From: a virus
IMG/VR virus record: IMGVR_UViG_3300044491_002068
Location: 41,331 to 105,330 of that record
Direction: 5' to 3' (one strand)
DNA: 64,000 nucleotides
Numbering within the stretch: position 1 is the stretch's first letter; every line of letters starts with the position of its first letter. Positions 4,401 through 47,076 of this stretch are shown one piece after another. The notes beneath the pieces were generated by a model. The model was given only the letters and a program-made list of their open reading frames with translations. It made no database searches and was not told the DNA's origin. The translations under genes were made by a program, and so were the position numbers.

Positions 4401-4884
4401 AAGCAATAGCGCTTTTCTTCCCAGCCGCACCACCACCAAGAAGCGGAGCCAACTGGGCCTCCTGAAACTCACGCATAGCAGCCGCAGCCACAGCCAGACC
4501 AGTAGCAACGGCGGCAGCAGCAATAGACAACCCCTTAAGTGCTATCTGATACGATTTAACAGCAACACGGCCAGTAACCAACGCAGCCTTAGCCGCTAAC
4601 AAACCGGCAGTAAACAAACCGATCTGGCCAGCAAGCGCAATAAACGAAAACTTTCCTAAAGTCTTTAGGAACTTTCCGAACGTGGAGCCGAACTTCATGA
4701 GCGCTTTATTCACACGATCAAAACTCTTCTCGGTGCGCCTATTGTTTCTATCTAAGTCACGAGACTCACGGTTGAACGAACGGGTACGATCCTCTAAAGA
4801 TTTAATACGGCGCTCAATGCCAGCCAAATCGCCGCCAATATCGGCGTCGATTTCAACCTTAATTACAACTCTTTCTTCAGTCAT
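1459..4884 (-). CDS. Tape measure protein
   Basis: 1141 aa, Ala/Gly-rich and helical with a GAAIGSVIPVVGTAVGA glycine zipper; follows the tail assembly chaperone. Confidence 0.9.
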   Translation of the reverse strand: MTEERVVIKVEIDADIGGDLAGIERRIKSLEDRTRSFNRESRDLDRNNRRTEKSFDRVNKALMKFGSTFGKFLKTLGKFSFIALAGQIGLFTAGLLAAKAALVTGRVAVKSYQIALKGLSIAAAAVATGLAVAAAAMREFQEAQLAPLLGGGAAGKKSAIALSRGIGSRMTGLLGGEATTAITGSLARAGVRGSQANSLVSQLYNITGGDAKAAQSLAAAFAGGDVKKAIQATQGAVGFKKDSLTGISTMSGLVSAVSGGGATADAFQGAGEAIAQTFVGTIKTEFAGIKGIFADVGEPLLGPFRNAFLQISKILREDILSLTAVVQRFGSESFAPTLVTIVDTVSEFVRSNIIGHLDTIENTAEKFVGFFKAISHFFYNVGNFLRQFEPAADVVIDMFKAMAGTAGGRGLFREFSGLIEGNAENFKEFGAAIGNVVGALLDLGSAGQGGFFAKLPTIIDALNRVASELVPALGKVLSAMMPLFEKVPDIISGLADAISTLAPVVEVLAKAIAALVGIIPDVVTGMMLLGGFGAVKALGFKGAGGMLSKVGGGIKTGAGFMRQSMRGGVGSQLSKNLLGKTRIGPGFAAAGTGTAVAGMGIAGAAIMGMGIKSAYDNGGGVGSMAAGIGGGALTGAAIGSVIPVVGTAVGAAVGAVVGGVATWFAGRKGKEKIRKATEEAMDKQLDTLANLDVLGMSSDEKMSTRASLVEQYVAVGDAISAGKASKFTAAEARRQSARRRIPLDVVLAETVGKDSEEFTKMTDMFQELGILGEKFDADEVFSRLPEYLSEAETAILAIDNAINRLNTNTALLTNELGLSEQQIQQFTTALGIDLQKNLGLEGLAGLAEIFFAPEIDRTQTFLPDFANTIAGRANKMASSDAALNALAESTRGGTYDVSLASDFVDRFAAAEMAFGADADIAGLSGVLELRQQAQAGAFGDADKFMQQFGISDMETGLFKRMSEAYGISVGDLREAYGSGNIDAVSNLINRTSFQRESLRTGIVSGDFGALAQGGVDISGAGFEDFRAYAGGRASEVYKDKFADGKIRRGIGGYMATQRSLANPASAEEFQRSLVAAVGEDESKRIMIDYLTASGDDMGAQTMLLQTISDNLAKPMISVNGQTTEERGGVIYQITIDPKSEE

Positions 4885-4900
4885 AAACGCCCCTAAGCAC

Positions 4901-4946
4901 AGAAAAACCGGGAATCCCTATAGAGTTATTCTATAGAAATTCCCGG
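4901..4946 (-). terminator. Long hairpin plus U-tract between chaperone and TMP
   Basis: CCGGGAAT..CTATAG / CTATAG..ATTCCCGG inverted repeat (4908-4946), followed by TTTTTCT on the minus strand. Confidence 0.6.
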
Positions 4947-4949
4947 CTC

Positions 4950-5156
4950 TCAGTAACCACCTCGTGAACCTCTTCGTTGTCTTTCTCGCTCAGCATGATC
5001 AGTAGCAAGCGCTTTAGCCGCCGCTAATCGGATGAGCCACTCATCATAATCGCAGTTCAAGATGTCTAAAGGATCGACATGGAATGTTTCGGCAAGCCTT
5101 GCTGCTGAACGTATCCTAACGTCTTGGGCTAGTTCATCAACTAGCCCTTCGTAGGG
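4950..5156 (-). CDS. Frameshifted C-terminal extension of the tail assembly chaperone (gpGT-like)
   Basis: The -1 frame is open from GAC CCT ACG and reads PYEGLVDELAQDVRIRSAARLAETFHVDPLDILNCDYDEWLIRLAAAKAL...GGY*. It has no ATG or SD of its own and sits just before the TMP. Confidence 0.75.
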   Translation of the reverse strand, partial: PYEGLVDELAQDVRIRSAARLAETFHVDPLDILNCDYDEWLIRLAAAKALATDHAERERQRRGSRGGY

Positions 5157-5656
5157 TCCTCAGCCTCAACATCGTCACCGTAACCAGCGTAATCAAGAAT
5201 CTTGAGAGCCACAGACTCCAAGTGCGGATCAACACCGTAAAACGCACGAATAGCGTCAGGTAACGGACGATCAGTGTTGGTCATCTCCATAACAACCGGA
5301 GACGCAAACGTAATCGCATTACCGTTATCGTCTAAAACTAACTCGTCGTTGTAGTAAATGCCGGTAACAGTCTGGCCAACAACGTAGCACGAAAACTTGA
5401 TGGAATCAAGTTCGTCAGTCTTTCGGTTCGTGGCATTACGACGCCACGACTTCAACTGCTCATTAGTAATATTGGGTGAGAACCTAACAGTCACACCCTT
5501 ACGCTCCGGCACAGGCATCTCAATTTCGGGACGAGTAACTTCCTTAGAAATCTCTTCCTTCAACTGATCTAGAACGGTAAGCCTACCGCCAGTCTTACGC
5601 TTCGGAGTTACCTCGTCAGCACTTGCTACTTCAATAATTTCGTTTTCGTCACTCAT
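5141..5656 (-). CDS. Tail assembly chaperone (gpG-like)
   Basis: Position upstream of the TMP; ends EDPTKG* with an overlapping -1 ORF. Confidence 0.75.
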   Translation of the reverse strand: MSDENEIIEVASADEVTPKRKTGGRLTVLDQLKEEISKEVTRPEIEMPVPERKGVTVRFSPNITNEQLKSWRRNATNRKTDELDSIKFSCYVVGQTVTGIYYNDELVLDDNGNAITFASPVVMEMTNTDRPLPDAIRAFYGVDPHLESVALKILDYAGYGDDVEAEDPTKG

Positions 5657-27990: not shown

Positions 27991-29805
27991 TCAGGAAAGC
28001 CCTTCCTCCATCAAACTCTGGAATTCTTGAAGGGCGTTTACAATATCAGCGTCAAGTGACTTCTCTTCGTCGCCTGATTCCTGCCCAGAGTCCATCGACC
28101 AGTCTTCTGGGATCATGTCTTCAAGGCCAAGTTCTTTTGCTCGCTTAGTAATATGAGCCTTTGCGGCTTCAACGTCGCTTGCACGCCCATGTGCTTGAAT
28201 TGCATTCTGCAAATCGGCTTCATCAGCAATAGGGAATGAACCGTCAGGCATTGCTTCACCAGACTCTGACATCGACTCACGCTGTTCACGTGAATACATT
28301 CGCTTAATCTGAAGTTCAGCCTCTAATGCCTTAATCTCGTCCTCTTCGGTCATTTCGTACTTAACTTCGTCAATGAGGTCATATTCGTCATAGCCAAGAA
28401 CCTTGCCCTCAACGGAGATGAAGAAGTCGTAACTCTTTTCGCTAGCCTCAACCTCAACAACATATACGTCCTCATCAGCGAAAACGTCAACCATAACACC
28501 CATGACTTCTCCCTTTGCCTCAACATCCATATATGCGAATGCTGTGACAGCGGCCTGCTCTGCGTCAGATTTAGAAATGATGTTAATCTGCTCAAGCGAC
28601 TTGCCCTCAAGCGCATTCTCATCAATCTTCAACCAACCCAGTTCCTGACCATCACCGGAAAGGAAAACTTCAATACAGGAGCCATCAGCACGCTTAACAT
28701 CAACAACGAACATGTCGTCAGCAACTGAATAGCCCGAACCCACAACCTCAGAGCCTTCATAGGCACTCTTAACTTGCGATTCAATATCACCCAATCCGGG
28801 GAGACCATCTTCGGGTGAGCAGCCACCGTGGCAGAATTCGCAAGGCTGATTAACCGACTTGCGTTGGAATCCGCACAAGAAGTCCTCTTCAGACTTCATA
28901 CCGCCTGCAGCAGCAGGAGCAGCAGGAGCAGTAGGAGCAGCGGGAGCAGGAGCAGCGTCTGGAGTCTCGTCAACATCGCTCTTAGCCAAATCAAGCCACT
29001 CTTCATGCGTGGCGCATGGCATGAACTTAACGCCAGCACGGTGCACACCCTCGCAACCTAGAACTGCGGCACGCTCAATCGCTTCTGCCTCAGTGTCAAA
29101 CATGTCCACATTTGATTCGCCATCTTCAGCCTTTTCGCCATTATCGGCCATCTTGCGCATGGCAACAACTTCCATTGGGCTACGGCGACGGTAACTCATA
29201 CCGTAGCCCTTCCCTGTACCCTCTTCGTAAACCGCAACTTCCTCGAATGCGGACTTAGCGTCTTCATCTAGACCGTCGTAATCTTCTGATGAAATAAGTT
29301 CGCCTTCTTCCATCATTTCCTTAAAACGAGTGTCAGTTAGGAACATAGAGGGCTTATCAACGGTGGCCGGATTCATCATAGACATGATCTTAGCGGCCTT
29401 TTCACTTACAACAGAGTTGTCCACCGACTTCTCTTCTGCATCTTCCTCGCCAGAAACTTCATCAGCGGTTTCTTCTACCTCTGCGTCGCCAGAAACGTCT
29501 GCCTCAGCATCCTCTTCCTCAGAATCATCTTCTGCCTTGAAACGGAACATCCAGCCCATTGGCTCCTTAGTTTCCTCATTCATGACATTGATCATCTCGT
29601 ATCCTTTTTGATCTTCTTCATCAAGAACGGAAAATGCGGCCTCGTCTAAGAGTTCACCAGCATCGACAGACTCCTTGAATCGAATGTCAGTCATGAATAC
29701 AGAAGGTGCGCCCTTCTCGTCCACATTAGCACTCTTTTCCTCAGAAGAAAGCAGAGCATCCATATCCTCAAACTTCTTAAGATCGTCATTCATGTTTTCA
29801 CTCAT
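27991..29805 (-). CDS. Acidic modular head protein (internal repeat, GCxGxH..PC module, PepSY-like repeats, MPDGSFPI domain)
   Basis: P.(V/M)F.TD.RFKE repeat x2; modules shared with neighbours; AGGAG SD before ATG 29805. Confidence 0.65.
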   Translation of the reverse strand: MSENMNDDLKKFEDMDALLSSEEKSANVDEKGAPSVFMTDIRFKESVDAGELLDEAAFSVLDEEDQKGYEMINVMNEETKEPMGWMFRFKAEDDSEEEDAEADVSGDAEVEETADEVSGEEDAEEKSVDNSVVSEKAAKIMSMMNPATVDKPSMFLTDTRFKEMMEEGELISSEDYDGLDEDAKSAFEEVAVYEEGTGKGYGMSYRRRSPMEVVAMRKMADNGEKAEDGESNVDMFDTEAEAIERAAVLGCEGVHRAGVKFMPCATHEEWLDLAKSDVDETPDAAPAPAAPTAPAAPAAAGGMKSEEDFLCGFQRKSVNQPCEFCHGGCSPEDGLPGLGDIESQVKSAYEGSEVVGSGYSVADDMFVVDVKRADGSCIEVFLSGDGQELGWLKIDENALEGKSLEQINIISKSDAEQAAVTAFAYMDVEAKGEVMGVMVDVFADEDVYVVEVEASEKSYDFFISVEGKVLGYDEYDLIDEVKYEMTEEDEIKALEAELQIKRMYSREQRESMSESGEAMPDGSFPIADEADLQNAIQAHGRASDVEAAKAHITKRAKELGLEDMIPEDWSMDSGQESGDEEKSLDADIVNALQEFQSLMEEGLS

Positions 29806-29837
29806 TTTTTGAACTCCTAAATCCTTCAAAGAGTATA

Positions 29838-31433
29838 CTACTCAACACCGTTATCGGTGTCAAGGTCTGTGTTCTGGGTAATAGAAATCTGAGGATCGAA
29901 CTCAAGGTTGGCTAAAGCGCTAGCGACCTTAATCATCAGTTCCTCGTGATTCATCTTAGTGGAAAAGTGTAGATCGACACCATCAATTGTTTTGAAGGCA
30001 AAAACCGGCACATCCACCATAGCCTTGCTGACATCAAACGCATGGCTATCAGCACACTTGACATGTACGATAAAGCCAGACGTGATCTTCTCATTCTGCT
30101 CGGCAGGAAGAGACATTGGTGCTGAAGTCAAGAACTTCTCAACTTCGTCAATAAGACCTAGAGTCGCCTCACGTAATTCGCCAGCGCCACGAAGTTTAAG
30201 CATCTCGTTGTATGCCATAAGTAGCAGAGTCATTGGGTCCTTCAAGTGATCTTTGTCCCCATACGAGCGGCGCTGATCATCGTCATAGTCGCCACCCTTT
30301 ACGCTATCGCATGAGCAGCCACTCTTGGACTCTTCAACACTAACCCCTGCTAGGTAGTTATTATGTGAGTTGATGTTTGCGTTACCGTCAAACTTTTCCA
30401 CAGCCTCCAAGTACTCGGCATGTGTTTCACACGGCAGGAAACCACCTCCGTGCGAGTGCCAACCGGAGCAACCGAAAGTCTTTGACCACGCCAGAGCGAT
30501 ATCAGGAGTAGCCCAAGTACCCTCTTCATTATTACCGTCACGGATACCTTCAGGCTCATCGGCGTCTTTGGCCTCTGGCTCTTTAACCATCATTGCGGGA
30601 GGAGCACCCTCTCCTACTGGAGCGTAAGTCATAGTAGGCTTAACACGAGTTGGCTTACCTAACGCTATCTGATCTCCTTCTGTGGAAAATGTCGCCATCC
30701 ACACCATGTCCTCACCGGTCTGGAAAATAACGTTGTTGTCTTCAATGTTTAAAATCTGTACAGGCTTATTCAACGCACGAGATATCAAGCGTCCCATCAT
30801 GGACGACATGGCATCTACGTCGTTTGACGCCCCGCCCTTATAATCATTCATTGTGATTGTGACTTCCTTTGCTTGTGCATTTTTCTCGTCATCTTTTACA
30901 GAAATGGTGCCGGTCAACTGATTGGCCCCGTGCAGCACTGGTGAAATTTCATAAAGTTCAACTTCTTTGAGAATGTTAGCCTGCTTAACTGCATCAAAGT
31001 CAGCGTCTAAAGTCTTGTAACCAATAGACCACTCTTGGTCATGCCCGTAGAAAGCAACATTAGCAAAAGCCTCACGGCCACGCTCTGTGTTCAAATTGAA
31101 CTGAACCTTGGCAAATAGCCCACCTACTCCTGCCTGCTTCATCTTATCAGGAAGCCGGGGGTCAGTCTTGGGTACTTCATAGATTTCAATAACTTTACCG
31201 ATTGGTTGATTCCAGTCGTGACCCCATACAACTCTAGGCTTGCGACGCTTTAAGGAACCAGAAAATGCGCCGGAGATAACAATATCCCCAACTGAGTCTT
31301 TATTACCGATGCCTGATACGAACGCTTCTACGATTCCTTGCGCTTTATCAATCCCGATTTGGCCTGAAATAGCCTTAAAATCAAAAGCCTCGTCGGTTTC
31401 TGATGCTTGATTTTGTGAAACTAGAGTAGTCAT
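29838..31433 (-). CDS. HK97-family prohead protease with C-terminal extension
   Basis: DSVGDIV..GAF, WGHD..QPIG, WSIGY, LYEISPV..GAN; AAGGAG SD before ATG 31433. Confidence 0.9.
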   Translation of the reverse strand: MTTLVSQNQASETDEAFDFKAISGQIGIDKAQGIVEAFVSGIGNKDSVGDIVISGAFSGSLKRRKPRVVWGHDWNQPIGKVIEIYEVPKTDPRLPDKMKQAGVGGLFAKVQFNLNTERGREAFANVAFYGHDQEWSIGYKTLDADFDAVKQANILKEVELYEISPVLHGANQLTGTISVKDDEKNAQAKEVTITMNDYKGGASNDVDAMSSMMGRLISRALNKPVQILNIEDNNVIFQTGEDMVWMATFSTEGDQIALGKPTRVKPTMTYAPVGEGAPPAMMVKEPEAKDADEPEGIRDGNNEEGTWATPDIALAWSKTFGCSGWHSHGGGFLPCETHAEYLEAVEKFDGNANINSHNNYLAGVSVEESKSGCSCDSVKGGDYDDDQRRSYGDKDHLKDPMTLLLMAYNEMLKLRGAGELREATLGLIDEVEKFLTSAPMSLPAEQNEKITSGFIVHVKCADSHAFDVSKAMVDVPVFAFKTIDGVDLHFSTKMNHEELMIKVASALANLEFDPQISITQNTDLDTDNGVE

Positions 31434-31531
31434 GACTCTCCTTAAGTACCATTGCAACATTCATATGATACACCCCTCCAGTAGATGATGATGAAGTGTT
31501 TATATAAACATGCTATTTTCTTTTTATATAA

Positions 31532-32290
31532 TTATACGCCGAACTTTAATACACACCTACAGTTTATAGTCAGCGGCGGCGGAGCAAGAGGGTCTTTAGG
31601 GAACCTGATAGCCACACCGTCCACGAAAAATGCGGAACCTACAGGTACTTTATCCCCGTGTAACTTGCGATGATCGGTCCGAACACGCTCATCACGAAGC
31701 GACACCCACTGCTTATAAACACTTAAACCGTCCCTTGACTCCTTTACGGAATCCTGTAAGCCCTGATTGTACGGACCTAATACAGCAGAATCAATAATTA
31801 AAGGCTTACGCTTTGATCGCAGTTTATTGAAAACACTTTTAACTAAAGAATAGGCTAAAGCGACTTTGAGAGCAATGTCAACATCTCTGCCATCTTCGTC
31901 AGTAAGTGCTGCTGCGACACCAAGTGCTGCAATAACTTGATCACGAGTCGTGGAATTGAAAGAGTTAACTACAGATGCCTGATTTGCTAATGCAGCGGAT
32001 CGCTCTTCACCACTTACCTGTCGTCCATAACCCTCGGTGATATTGTCAGAAATGGCCTTGTCATAAACTGCGCCCATTGCCTCAACTAGTTGGTTTGTCT
32101 GAAGAGACAGCATATACACAGAAAGGATTCCCGCTACAGCGCCAGCGCCAAAAAGGGCCTTACCTTCGTCGCTATTCAATCTATCTAAAACTAATTGCTC
32201 TTGTGTATCAAAAATTTCCTCTAAAGCCGAAGACACTTCGTCTTCCATCGAATCTACACGATAAAGTGTTTTCTCTTCCCAAGTAGGCAA
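31532..32290 (-). CDS. MuF / SPP1 gp7-like minor head protein (probably translated as a portal fusion)
   Basis: KQW....DERVR..H..LHG......F......RFP.DP......INCRC; no SD at the TTG, and the frame stays open back to a slippery site at 32341. Confidence 0.88.
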   Translation of the reverse strand: MPTWEEKTLYRVDSMEDEVSSALEEIFDTQEQLVLDRLNSDEGKALFGAGAVAGILSVYMLSLQTNQLVEAMGAVYDKAISDNITEGYGRQVSGEERSAALANQASVVNSFNSTTRDQVIAALGVAAALTDEDGRDVDIALKVALAYSLVKSVFNKLRSKRKPLIIDSAVLGPYNQGLQDSVKESRDGLSVYKQWVSLRDERVRTDHRKLHGDKVPVGSAFFVDGVAIRFPKDPLAPPPLTINCRCVLKFGV

Positions 32291-32316
32291 AAGACTTAAA
32301 TTAGTTTGGCTATCTA

Positions 32317-33780
32317 CTAAGGAGATTGATTTTGTAAAGGGCGGCTCTGCTCACCCTCCGCTTCACTTAACTCACTAGGTACTTGAGCGGCGCTAGCCTC
32401 AATCCGCTGTGTCCCTTGAACCGTCCCCGTGGGAACAAATGCCCCTTGTTCCGGACTAAATTCTGTGACCTGCTGTTGCTGTGCTTCTGAAGCCTGCACG
32501 TCTAAGGGAACGCCTCCCTGAACGTCTGCCCCCTCATTCATTGGCTTTTCTGTGTTGGCAATTGGTGTCTGGTTGGGGTTAGACAACAACGAGTCAGCAA
32601 TGTCTGAAACAACTTTCTTTCTTCCAGACGCCTCTCGGTACTCATTGGTGCTAATGAGACCCTGCTGGTATTCTGTCAAATAGTGACGCTCACGCTCCTG
32701 TTTTGCAAGAACAAGGATGGGGACGTTTGACGTATCGAAATCAATGAAGTAGGTGTCATCAAGTCTATCAAATGAACGAGCAATCAAATCCAAGTGGGGT
32801 GACATCGTTTCCATCCAGAACACCTTGCCCTCTTCCATGGCGTTAGAGAATGTTCTATTTGAGGAGTTACCAATAATCGACTCTGGTACACCAAATGCCG
32901 CTAGAATCTCCTCTTTTGTAACAGTACGCATTTGAATATATGCCGCATCCCGTGGGCTGGCAGCAGTATCAACGAAGTCGGCACCATCGTCAGATGAAAT
33001 CACGCCTACCGAACCAACACGTCCAATATTCCCACGAAACCTTGAGCGCAACTCCTCTTTATCCTCGTCAGCAATCTCGCTACGAAGGACAAGGAGACCA
33101 CCCGGACGGCCATCGTTAATCAAAAAGTTTCGGTTATAAATTTTTGCTAAGTTCTCTAATTCAATAGCAACGCCTGCAGCCTCCATTGGGGTCATGGATA
33201 GGTACGGGTCTAATGGGTGTGGGCGTCTAATCCAAATAACATTCTTAGGTGGGATAGTGCGCTTTTCCATTGCGCTTATCTTTACCTCAAACCCTTTAAC
33301 AAAGTTGTTCACATCGGGAATAGGGGAGGTATTCTGAGGAGGAAGTAGGTGCAAAGCAATTGGTACACCACTACGTCCACGAACAATTTCGACAAAAGCA
33401 CCCCGGCTGCTCATTAACAACTGAGAAGATAGTCGATAGCGGAAAGCGAAAGCGTTTTCCCCAGCATTCGCTGTGTTATTGAATAGACGTAGTAATGAGT
33501 GGTCGTCTACAATTTCACCAAATGGATTATTGTCTTTTCTGAATATCATGGGTAGACGTGCTTGGTTGGAAGCAATAACGTCTATAGCCCGGAAAACCCA
33601 TGTTACTTTAGCCACACCTTCACGGTATGCTTTAACAATATCCCAACCGTCATGGTACCCTTCGTTTCTTCCCTGAATTGAAGGACTGTACGAAATGGGT
33701 GCACCGACTGAGACGGGAGCCGCTTTCTGACCAGTTACAATATTTTCAAGAGATTTACTAGACGTATTGTTCCAAGCCAT
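32317..33780 (-). CDS. HK97-family portal protein
   Basis: WVFRAIDVIA...A.LP, N.F.NDGRPGG.L, EI.AAFGVP..IIG.....TF.N motifs. Confidence 0.93.
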   Translation of the reverse strand: MAWNNTSSKSLENIVTGQKAAPVSVGAPISYSPSIQGRNEGYHDGWDIVKAYREGVAKVTWVFRAIDVIASNQARLPMIFRKDNNPFGEIVDDHSLLRLFNNTANAGENAFAFRYRLSSQLLMSSRGAFVEIVRGRSGVPIALHLLPPQNTSPIPDVNNFVKGFEVKISAMEKRTIPPKNVIWIRRPHPLDPYLSMTPMEAAGVAIELENLAKIYNRNFLINDGRPGGLLVLRSEIADEDKEELRSRFRGNIGRVGSVGVISSDDGADFVDTAASPRDAAYIQMRTVTKEEILAAFGVPESIIGNSSNRTFSNAMEEGKVFWMETMSPHLDLIARSFDRLDDTYFIDFDTSNVPILVLAKQERERHYLTEYQQGLISTNEYREASGRKKVVSDIADSLLSNPNQTPIANTEKPMNEGADVQGGVPLDVQASEAQQQQVTEFSPEQGAFVPTGTVQGTQRIEASAAQVPSELSEAEGEQSRPLQNQSP

Positions 33781-33938: not shown

Positions 33939-33979
33939 GAATATACTTTACCGTGAATTTGTCTAGGAGACAAGCACAT

Positions 33980-35296
33980 ATGTCCAACGAAACAGCCGAC
34001 TGGCAGAAAATCAAAGAATATCTTGAGCCAAAGCGCTCAGAGTATTGGGTGGAGGAGCCATCTCTGACACAAAAGGTATTCTTGAAAGCAACAACTCAGG
34101 AAGTATTATTTGGTGGTGCCGCTGGTGGGGGAAAGTCATCTGCCCTTATTATGGCGGCACTCCAATATGTGGACGTTCCGGGCTATAGCGCTATCCTTTT
34201 CCGACGAACTTACGCCGACCTTGCTCTACCCGGAGCACTCATGGACCGATTTAGGGACTGGATAATGCAGTATGACGATGTTAACTGGAACGCTAACCAG
34301 TATACTGCAACATTCCCAAGCGGAGCACGAATCACATTCGGCTACTTGAATAACGTTAACGACTATCTGAGATACAAAGGTTCCGAATTCCAATTCATCG
34401 GAATGGACGAGGTTACTGAAATTAGAGAATCAGACTATCGCTATATGTTCTCTCGTCTCCGCCGACCGGCATCAGGGCCACTGGCACAAGTACCTCTGCG
34501 TATGAGGGCAGCGACAAACCCTGCGCCCAACTGGGTGAGGCAACGGTTCTTGGTGGAAGGTAAAAAGACAGGAAGAATATTTATTCCTTCAATGCTTACA
34601 GACAACCCCGGAATCGACCCAGACTCCTACCGAGCCATGCTGGCAGAACTAGACCCCGTGGAAAGAAAGAGGCTGGAGTTTGGAGACTGGTGGTCAACCA
34701 CGCTTGGGTCAATGTTTGATAGGAACAACTTTGAGGTTGTAGAACCATCAGAGATACCTACATTCTCAAAAGACACATCCATTATCAGATTCTGGGATTT
34801 GGCTGGAACAGAGCCATCACAATCAAACCCCGACCCTGACTGGACTGTTGGCTGTCTCGGCGCATTCGATAACGGAGTTTTCTATATTCTTGACGTGCGT
34901 AGAATTCGTGCTAAAGGTGAAAAAATTGAAAAGTTTATTAGAGACACTGCGGAAGAAGACGGTGTAGAAATAGCAATTCAAATGGAGCAAGAACCCGGCT
35001 CTGCGGGAAAGAACCTAATCGACCAATATGCTAGATACGTATTGCCCGGATATGCGTTCTCTGGTCAGAGAGCAACAGGAGACAAGGTTACACGAGCAAA
35101 ACCGTTTGCCGCAGCAGTGGCTAATGGAAACGTCCGACTCGTTCAGGCAGACTGGAACACAGACTTTATTGATGAAATGTCAGCATTCCCAGAAGCACGA
35201 GTCCACGACGACCAAGTTGACGCAGCGACACATGCATTCAATGTTTGCGCAGGGCTTGGAATGGGGCTCAAGCGAAAGATAGAAATTATCTGCTAA
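33980..35296 (+). CDS. terL: Terminase large subunit
   Basis: Walker A FGGAAGGGKS, Walker B IGMDE, ATNP, nuclease WDLA...HDDQVDA; AGGAG SD. Confidence 0.95.
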   Translation: MSNETADWQKIKEYLEPKRSEYWVEEPSLTQKVFLKATTQEVLFGGAAGGGKSSALIMAALQYVDVPGYSAILFRRTYADLALPGALMDRFRDWIMQYDDVNWNANQYTATFPSGARITFGYLNNVNDYLRYKGSEFQFIGMDEVTEIRESDYRYMFSRLRRPASGPLAQVPLRMRAATNPAPNWVRQRFLVEGKKTGRIFIPSMLTDNPGIDPDSYRAMLAELDPVERKRLEFGDWWSTTLGSMFDRNNFEVVEPSEIPTFSKDTSIIRFWDLAGTEPSQSNPDPDWTVGCLGAFDNGVFYILDVRRIRAKGEKIEKFIRDTAEEDGVEIAIQMEQEPGSAGKNLIDQYARYVLPGYAFSGQRATGDKVTRAKPFAAAVANGNVRLVQADWNTDFIDEMSAFPEARVHDDQVDAATHAFNVCAGLGMGLKRKIEIIC

Positions 35297-46462: not shown

Positions 46463-46843
46463 TCAACCCTCATCCAGCACCCTGCGGAGAGAAGCAGACA
46501 AATTAGAATCGTACGGAACGGAAGTCGAACTGATCGCCTCACGAAGAATCTCCGACAACTTTAAACCCATATACTTGCTAGCGTTATCGCTTACCGCCTC
46601 ACGAAGATCATCATTCTCAAGGCCCTCCAAATCAACCATAATTTTATTAATAACGAACTCGTCAATTTCCTCATTCATGTACTCCTCCGAAACAGCAAGC
46701 ACCATAGCACTTTCATCCCACAAAACAATATCAAAATCCTCACCATCAAGGGCAGAAGACGGTGCAACAATAAAAGTGATAGTAGCATCACCACGCTTCA
46801 ATACGGCGAGAACATCATCATCGAACTCGTAGTCCTCACTCAT
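46463..46843 (-). CDS. Hypothetical acidic protein
   Basis: ATGA-coupled to whiB. Confidence 0.6.
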   Translation of the reverse strand: MSEDYEFDDDVLAVLKRGDATITFIVAPSSALDGEDFDIVLWDESAMVLAVSEEYMNEEIDEFVINKIMVDLEGLENDDLREAVSDNASKYMGLKLSEILREAISSTSVPYDSNLSASLRRVLDEG

Positions 46844-47076
46844 GCATCAACACTATCAACTAAACGGGAAAGTTCTGGACCAGTTTTTCCTCCCCATACA
46901 CCAATCGTCAAATTGTTGCGAACAGCAAACTCAAGACACTCCGATGTGTTAGGACACTCCGAAGAACAAATACTTGACGCCAATTTCCTGCTAGCAGGCT
47001 TAGCCGAAAAAAACAATCTATCCTTACCCGCACAAGGTGCATCCTTATACCACGGGGGACAATCTATAGAAAACAT
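46840..47076 (-). CDS. whiB: WhiB-family Fe-S transcription factor
   Basis: W...A.C...LFF, A..IC...CP...ECL.FA, GVWGG. Confidence 0.92.
   Translation of the reverse strand: MFSIDCPPWYKDAPCAGKDRLFFSAKPASRKLASSICSSECPNTSECLEFAVRNNLTIGVWGGKTGPELSRLVDSVDA

Follow-up and report, generated by a model that had tools for sequence, protein, structure and literature searches.

A proposed programmed -1 ribosomal frameshift joining portal and MuF in the head module of an aquatic phage clade

How is a MuF-like protein produced when its reading frame opens inside the end of the portal gene, one base out of register? The question is raised by a 64,000-nt stretch of DNA (positions 41,331-105,330; hereafter, the window) of the IMG/VR virus contig IMGVR_UViG_3300044491_002068, a record of 105 kb that is about 71% complete. 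The head module lies on the minus strand of the window and contains, in order, a portal gene, a MuF-like open reading frame (ORF), and a prohead protease fusion. The initial annotation proposed that a programmed -1 frameshift near the portal stop codon fuses the first two. Nucleotide-level conservation of the site against saturated synonymous change supports that proposal, and a programmed -1 ribosomal frameshift fusing portal to MuF is by far the best reading of the locus, one that we regard as highly likely.

Portal and MuF in overlapping frames

The portal gene (32317..33780, minus strand; all coordinates are those of the window unless stated) encodes an HK97-family portal with a zero-frame product of 487 amino acids (aa), of which residues 61-384 match the Pfam profile PF04860 (E = 1.6e-55; 189 bits against a cut-off of 39.1). 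Its matches in the Protein Data Bank (PDB) are the RcGTA and HK97 portals (6TE8, E = 3e-24), which are 393-431 aa long, and the last 70-90 or so residues of the window's portal form a low-complexity extension that exceeds these solved HK97-type structures. On the minus strand the gene ends with GAG CAG AGC CGC CCT TTA CAA AAT CAA TCT CCT TAG TAG, giving the zero-frame C-terminus EGEQSRPLQNQSP. As the initial annotation had stated, these codons contain the slippery heptamer C_CCT_TTA (X_XXY_YYZ; 32335..32341, minus strand) in the zero frame of the portal, with the zero-frame stop TAG (32317..32319, minus strand) five codons 3′ of it, and the -1 frame is open from the heptamer into MuF. The portal stop is followed in tandem by a second TAG (32314-32316, minus strand).

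The -1 frame is open from 32350, through the heptamer, to a stop at 31534-31532. Upstream it is closed by a TGA (32351..32353, minus strand) located three codons 5′ of the heptamer, so that no -1-frame start is possible further 5′. Counted from the heptamer, the -1-frame ORF (31532..32341, minus strand) comprises 269 codons and a stop, and encodes a variable linker of 20 residues followed by the MuF-like protein, whose folded part starts at a W-E-E-K motif (32270..32281, minus strand) with W and K nearly invariant in the family. The match to PF04233 covers residues 183-268 of the ORF (38.9 bits, cut-off 29.6), and the ORF also matches phrog_2468, 'head morphogenesis' (E = 7e-20). In phrog_2662, a 717-position profile labelled 'portal', the portal of the window aligns at positions 37-464 and the MuF ORF at positions 480-707. 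Unlike the fusion type represented by that profile, portal and MuF in the window are not in one uninterrupted frame but in frames 0 and -1, with stops both ways.

A Shine-Dalgarno (SD)-like GGAGGG (32354..32359, minus strand), which was not part of the initial annotation, lies 13 nt 5′ of the heptamer and is proposed to stimulate slippage. On the window by itself, a frameshift is merely suggestive: the chance of one in-phase heptamer in an overlap of about 11 codons is approximately 4%, and the window shows no enrichment of the word CCCTTTW (11 occurrences found, 14.9 expected). It is the conservation of the site in relatives that takes it far beyond chance.

Conservation of the junction in relatives

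When IMG/VR was scanned with the portal, 80 loci with identities of 61-87% were identified. In 55 of these the portal is followed by MuF in the -1 frame, and each of the 55 has an in-phase C_CCT_TTT or C_CCT_TTA; the heptamer and the -1 overlap, whose conservation the initial annotation had recommended checking, are thus kept in every relative with the same gene layout. The conserved cassette around the heptamer reads GGAGGGT-RR-GAAGAG-NNN-CCCTTTW, with the spacing from GGAGGG to the heptamer fixed at 13 nt across the relatives. A pattern search with the 24-nt cassette GAGGGTRRGAAGAGNNNCCCTTTW recovered 60 IMG/VR contigs, which carry 53 different dataset ids. In all 60, the zero frame reaches its stop 3-14 codons past the heptamer, and the -1 frame spans 260-273 codons in the 53 contigs with enough fetched DNA, the other seven being still open where the DNA ends. 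A -1-frame stop (TGA, TAG or TAA) lies exactly three codons 5′ of the heptamer in 55/55 loci. The position of this stop is kept even in the divergent locus L076, whose zero-frame residues differ. Rather than being a functional element, the conserved stop may more simply be a side effect of having GGT before a purine-initial codon that specifies a charged residue.

Whether the heptamer is conserved as nucleotides or merely as peptide was addressed with a codon alignment of 33 distinct portals, which contained 115 invariant amino acid columns with at least four available codons and 79 invariant two-codon columns. The mean frequency of the top codon was 0.48 in the former and 0.67 in the latter, indicating that synonymous sites are well mixed. 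Only two invariant columns used a single codon throughout: the heptamer proline, CCT (33/33), and the upstream glutamate GAG of GGAGGG (33/33); CCT is therefore the sole unvarying codon among the 115 columns with four codons or more. The glycine next to GAG is encoded by GGT in 32 of the 33 portals. The codon preceding the heptamer was CGC, GTC, GCC, GAC, CTC, TAC or GGC, encoding seven different residues (R, V, A, D, L, Y, G) but always of the form NNC, and the retained third-position C supplies the first C of the heptamer. The last heptamer codon was TTT in 26 portals and TTA in seven, a change from Phe to Leu that keeps the YYZ pattern. Conservation at the codon level in this form would be expected of a frameshift cassette, and a conserved C-terminal peptide would not account for it.

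Other gene layouts occur among the related loci. In the clade L018-L023, the cassette is absent, the portal ends in SDEES, and an ATG of its own, ten codons ahead of W-E-E-K, starts MuF in the +1 frame within the last codons of the portal. The clade comprising L028-L040, L055, L057 and L079 has neither the cassette nor an adjacent MuF; its portal ends in SESAL, and in the roughly 100 nt past the portal stop come AT-rich intergenic DNA and the protease gene, with a strong AAGGAGA-ATG start. PF04233 was not found elsewhere in four contigs of this clade, which are just 29-45% complete. In a single contig, L016 (positions 4700-5240 of that contig), portal and MuF are in one frame, yet GGAGGGT and C_CCT_TTA are kept. 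A -1 slip there would reach a stop after seven codons and yield a portal without MuF, reversing the polarity of the site as in dnaX, although the contig stands alone and may contain an assembly error. A quick maximum-likelihood tree of the portal cores placed the frameshift layout in all basal lineages and each of the other layouts in one nested clade. This tree is provisional (quick search, midpoint root, and support from the Shimodaira-Hasegawa-like approximate likelihood ratio test only), and suggests that the frameshift is ancestral to the aquatic clade and was lost three times.

The in-frame state of L016, together with the in-frame fusions of the nearest cultured relatives (see below) and of phrog_2662, would fit a different history, in which the offset is a sequencing or assembly indel, or the mark of an in-frame portal-MuF gene that was recently broken and is decaying. 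The distribution of the offset argues against this: 60 contigs drawn from 53 datasets share this geometry at portal identities of 61-87%, and the offset is always -1 and always at the same heptamer. As these 60 independent contigs agree, an assembly indel, which the initial annotation had itself singled out, is excluded. Decay is contradicted by the substitution pattern of MuF, for which the ratio of nonsynonymous to synonymous substitution rates (dN/dS) was 0.03-0.22 with dS of 0.35-3.7, at least 1.0 in eight of nine pairs. Low dN/dS at saturated dS points to a MuF that is expressed and under strong purifying selection, and the explanation by indel or decay is refuted for practical purposes.

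If MuF is expressed, it could be so from a start of its own. In this alternative, portal and MuF are two ordinary genes, MuF is translated from the TTG at 32288..32290 (minus strand; first base 32290), and the heptamer merely encodes a conserved Pro-Phe/Leu at the portal C-terminus. This TTG, the sole canonical start codon between the heptamer and the MuF fold, lies three codons before W21, the first residue of that fold. No SD-like sequence precedes it, as the initial annotation had noted, which is not disqualifying because an SD-like sequence is found before only about one third of the genes of this phage. Besides, the sister clade L018-L023 uses its own ATG for MuF. However, in 31 of 33 distinct junctions, the stretch from the -1-frame stop to the conserved W-E-x-K is free of ATG, GTG and TTG codons; these 31 have their earliest potential start 21-77 codons 3′ of the heptamer and no counterpart of the window's TTG. 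Nor would two ordinary genes explain, through constraint on the peptide, the invariant CCT, the NNC codon kept across seven residues, or the invariant GAG GGT, or why the -1 frame should be open back to the heptamer in 60/60 contigs despite linkers that differ in length and sequence. We consider the two-gene explanation improbable.

Structural modelling located the start of the MuF fold. In the AlphaFold model of the MuF ORF (made with 26 family members; predicted local distance difference test score of 88), the first 20 residues are disordered and W21 opens the first long helix; in the MuF alignment W21 is present in at least 90% of sequences and K24 is invariant. The conserved fold thus starts 5′ of any possible start codon in most members, and because it precedes every possible initiation codon there, it is reachable only via the portal frame. 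An independent N-terminus of MuF, the other alternative raised in the initial annotation, therefore fails in 31/33 junctions for want of a start codon, whereas the window itself has one. MuF had no sequence match among solved structures, and a Foldseek search of the PDB with its AlphaFold model returned generic helical bundles and nothing significant, so that the fold is uninformative on function.

A proposed mechanism of slippage

The site is very probably of the tandem-slippage type, and stimulation by the SD-like sequence is proposed because no conserved 3′ RNA structure was found and GGAGGG is conserved at 13 nt. In the proposed mechanism, ribosomes at C_CCU_UUA would have CCU in the P site, read by tRNA-Pro, and UUA in the A site, read by tRNA-Leu, while GGAGGG pairs with the anti-SD end of 16S rRNA in the elongating ribosome. 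In some ribosomes, both tRNAs would re-pair one base back (CCC UUU) and translation would go on in the -1 frame; the heptamer would permit such a shift of tRNA-Pro from CCU to CCC and of tRNA-Phe or tRNA-Leu from UUU or UUA to UUU. The -1 reading would then pass a flexible linker of about 20 residues into MuF. Two products are predicted, the 487-aa portal, presumably in the majority, and a portal-MuF fusion of 749 aa, which consists of portal residues 1-482 and 267 further residues and in which the junction falls between SRPL and TKSI. No tRNA genes were found in the 64-kb window, so that no tRNA encoded there could tune the site.

A spacing similar to 13 nt was reportedly described for the SD-like sequence of dnaX by Larsen and colleagues in 1994. 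Sharma et al. 2014 sought stimulatory SD-like sequences 6-17 nt upstream, a range within which 13 nt falls, and in E. coli H_HH.U_UU.Y heptamers are among the most efficient, while C_CC.U_UU.A shifts at >0.1% without stimulators and is under-represented in genes (PMC4066793). A role of GGAGGG as stimulator is what we infer from its conservation and position. A conserved downstream RNA stimulator was ruled out as a candidate: the 70 nt past the heptamer were folded in the 33 distinct junctions, and minimum free energy z-scores were scattered around zero (-2.7 to +1.5) with no common hairpin and no conservation of the linker sequence. A local hairpin past the heptamer was present in a few lineages (L076, L065 and L067).

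Recoding by another mechanism at the same place was also considered, namely P-site slippage of tRNA-Pro alone on C_CCU with a slowly decoded UUA or UUU in the A site, slippage of RNA polymerase, or termination and reinitiation after the portal stop. The first of these draws on the observation that C_CC.U tetramers give some -1 slippage in E. coli (PMC4066793), and the failure to find a 3′ structure also leaves room for such mechanisms. Yet the A-site triplet is only ever TTT or TTA, never TTC, TTG or CTN, which fits tandem slippage; the T run of 3-4 bases is too short for known transcriptional slippage; and reinitiation is opposed by the lack of a start codon near the portal stop in the relatives and by the variable distance from that stop to MuF. 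Taken together, we judge these mechanisms quite improbable.

Programmed frameshifting by tandem slippage has to be weighed against a few remaining points, besides the TTG of the window, from which independent initiation would be possible in that genome. The case is built throughout on sequence comparison. The heptamer of the window ends in A (UUA), the weaker form in E. coli. As no conserved 3′ structure is present in the 33 junctions, stimulation would depend on the 5′ element alone and the efficiency may be low, and the proposed pairing of GGAGGG with 16S rRNA would depend on the 16S 3′ end of the host. Lastly, covalent linkage is not obligatory in the family, as MuF is free in one sister clade and missing beside the portal in another.

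In portals of the HK97 type and of SPP1, the C-terminus is inside the capsid. Because this end points inwards, the fusion would hold a limited complement of MuF within the head, on the inner side of the portal vertex, provided that fusion subunits enter the dodecamer, as we infer. Frameshifting would then fix the number of MuF-bearing subunits genetically, as in the idea of the initial annotation that recoding may set MuF stoichiometry. The same annotation suggested that MuF is later released by proteolysis. The W-E-x-K motif at the boundary of linker and fold might, speculatively, be a processing site of the prohead protease, and the conserved GTISVK at the end of the protease domain in 26 relatives is a possible self-cleavage site. 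The near invariance of W-E-x-K and the ISVK of the protease are circumstantial, and release of MuF by proteolysis is barely supported by them; W-E-x-K is also kept in the clade with free MuF and may be simply structural. A wider reading would hold that portal-to-MuF -1 frameshifting is general and repeatedly evolved in tailed phages, with a few subunits of the dodecamer carrying tethered MuF that is freed by the prohead protease at W-E-x-K and delivered with the DNA. On this view, C_CCU_UUW with an SD-like stimulator would be the version found in the present actinophage-like aquatic clade. We offer it tentatively, as a proposal rather more apt to fail than to hold.

Genomic setting and known systems

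The large terminase gene (33953..35296, plus strand) is divergent from the portal gene. Compared with cultured viruses, it is most similar to Methanobacterium phage psiM2 (44% identity over 92%), with the actinophages close behind. The prohead protease fusion (29838..31460, minus strand) carries Peptidase_S78 at residues 41-188 and, C-terminally, some 350 aa that include a DUF3721-like motif rich in Cys and His; the ribosome-binding site of this gene, GGAGGGG, is nearly identical to the GGAGGG before the heptamer. The next ORF after the protease (27991-29829, minus strand; 612 aa) matches DUF3721 (E = 2.5e-11) and has no PHROG match.

No DNA similarity to cultured phages was found. A comparison with 185,579 prokaryote genomes also found no relatives, and hence neither a prophage nor a direct host assignment. 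Among cultured phages, those with portals closest to that of the window are actinobacteriophages (43% identity), and a WhiB-family gene is present at 46840-47076 on the minus strand (PF02467, E = 9e-13). Judging from the WhiB gene and the nearest cultured phages, the host is likely an aquatic actinobacterium of moderate G+C content.

To our knowledge, few phage structural genes have a conserved programmed frameshift; the main examples are the tail chaperone pair G/GT and some capsid or decoration proteins. If true, the portal-MuF shift would be a second lineage-wide case, placed in the head module, and would alter genome annotation, in which MuF is now called as a start-less or wrongly started ORF. 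It would also provide a genetic explanation for sub-stoichiometric loading of a minor internal head protein at the portal. MuF domains in other phages often carry toxins or other cargo, and the mechanism bears on how the cargo dose per virion is set. The four states seen in one family (constitutive fusion, frameshift fusion, separate gene, and no adjacent MuF) offer a natural experiment on why stoichiometry matters, and the short cassette, apparently needing no 3′ structure, would be a clean model for SD-stimulated slippage on C_CCU_UUW. The literature searched yielded portal-MuF fusions and no report of a portal-MuF frameshift, and neither 'portal' nor 'MuF' occurs in the 300,000 of 449,034 characters of a recoding review that were covered (PMC5009743). 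Such a mechanism is familiar in kind, but this gene pair and this purpose appear to be undescribed.

Fusions of portal and MuF do exist, as the initial annotation had stated. In-frame fusions have been described in Microbacterium phages of clusters EA3/EA5/EA8 and EB (PMC7302621), and, among the nearest cultured relatives, PF04860 and PF04233 are in one frame in Brevibacterium phage Cantare gp7 (793 aa) and Gordonia phage DalanDe gp18 (923 aa), neither of which has an in-phase slippery heptamer at the junction. These actinophage proteins, and Streptomyces phage Gilgamesh gp46, share with the predicted fusion the domain order PF04860 to PF04233 and a long low-complexity linker. They differ in being encoded by a single ORF, so that every subunit carries MuF, whereas here two frames are used and the portal without MuF would be the default product. 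Among the longer MuF homologues in a set of 5.8 billion proteins, just four distant portal-MuF fusions, from Streptomyces or JGI data, were found and no close in-frame version. In SPP1, the gene order from portal (gp6) to MuF (gp7) is the same and MuF is likewise targeted to the capsid interior through the portal: as the initial annotation had stated, the MuF homologue gp7 binds the portal at low copy. A few copies of gp7 enter the procapsid in this way, and full infectivity depends on them (PMC6316719). The SPP1 genes are separate, however, with gp7 having its own start and associating non-covalently.

The signal itself resembles those of E. coli dnaX tau/gamma and of IS3/IS911-type elements, in which an X_XXY_YYZ tandem-slippage heptamer likewise has an SD-like sequence about 10-14 nt 5′; in those systems the SD-like sequence pairs with 16S rRNA of the elongating ribosome (PMC5009743; Larsen et al. 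1994 as cited in PMC4066793). In the IS3 family, as proposed here, shifting produces a longer protein that fuses two ORFs. The dnaX and IS3-type signals use A_AAA_AAG with a 3′ hairpin or pseudoknot, while the present site has C_CCU_UUW, no conserved 3′ structure that could be found, and phage head genes on either side. A parallel in a structural-gene operon is lambda gpG/gpGT, also a -1 frameshift conserved across a phage lineage. There the shorter product predominates, the longer one is made as a minor species in fixed proportion to it, and position and function are conserved above sequence (Xu, Hendrix and Duda 2004, as cited in PMC7302621 and PMC7911831). The present site is not of the G/GT type, being located between portal and MuF in the head module, beside terL and the prohead protease. 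The lambda proteins are tail chaperones, whereas the pair here is portal and MuF, with loading of an internal head protein as the presumed role and with the cassette sequence itself conserved. If the wider reading were true, head genes would have a recoding class comparable in conservation to tail G/GT, and the portal vertex a defined source of symmetry breaking.

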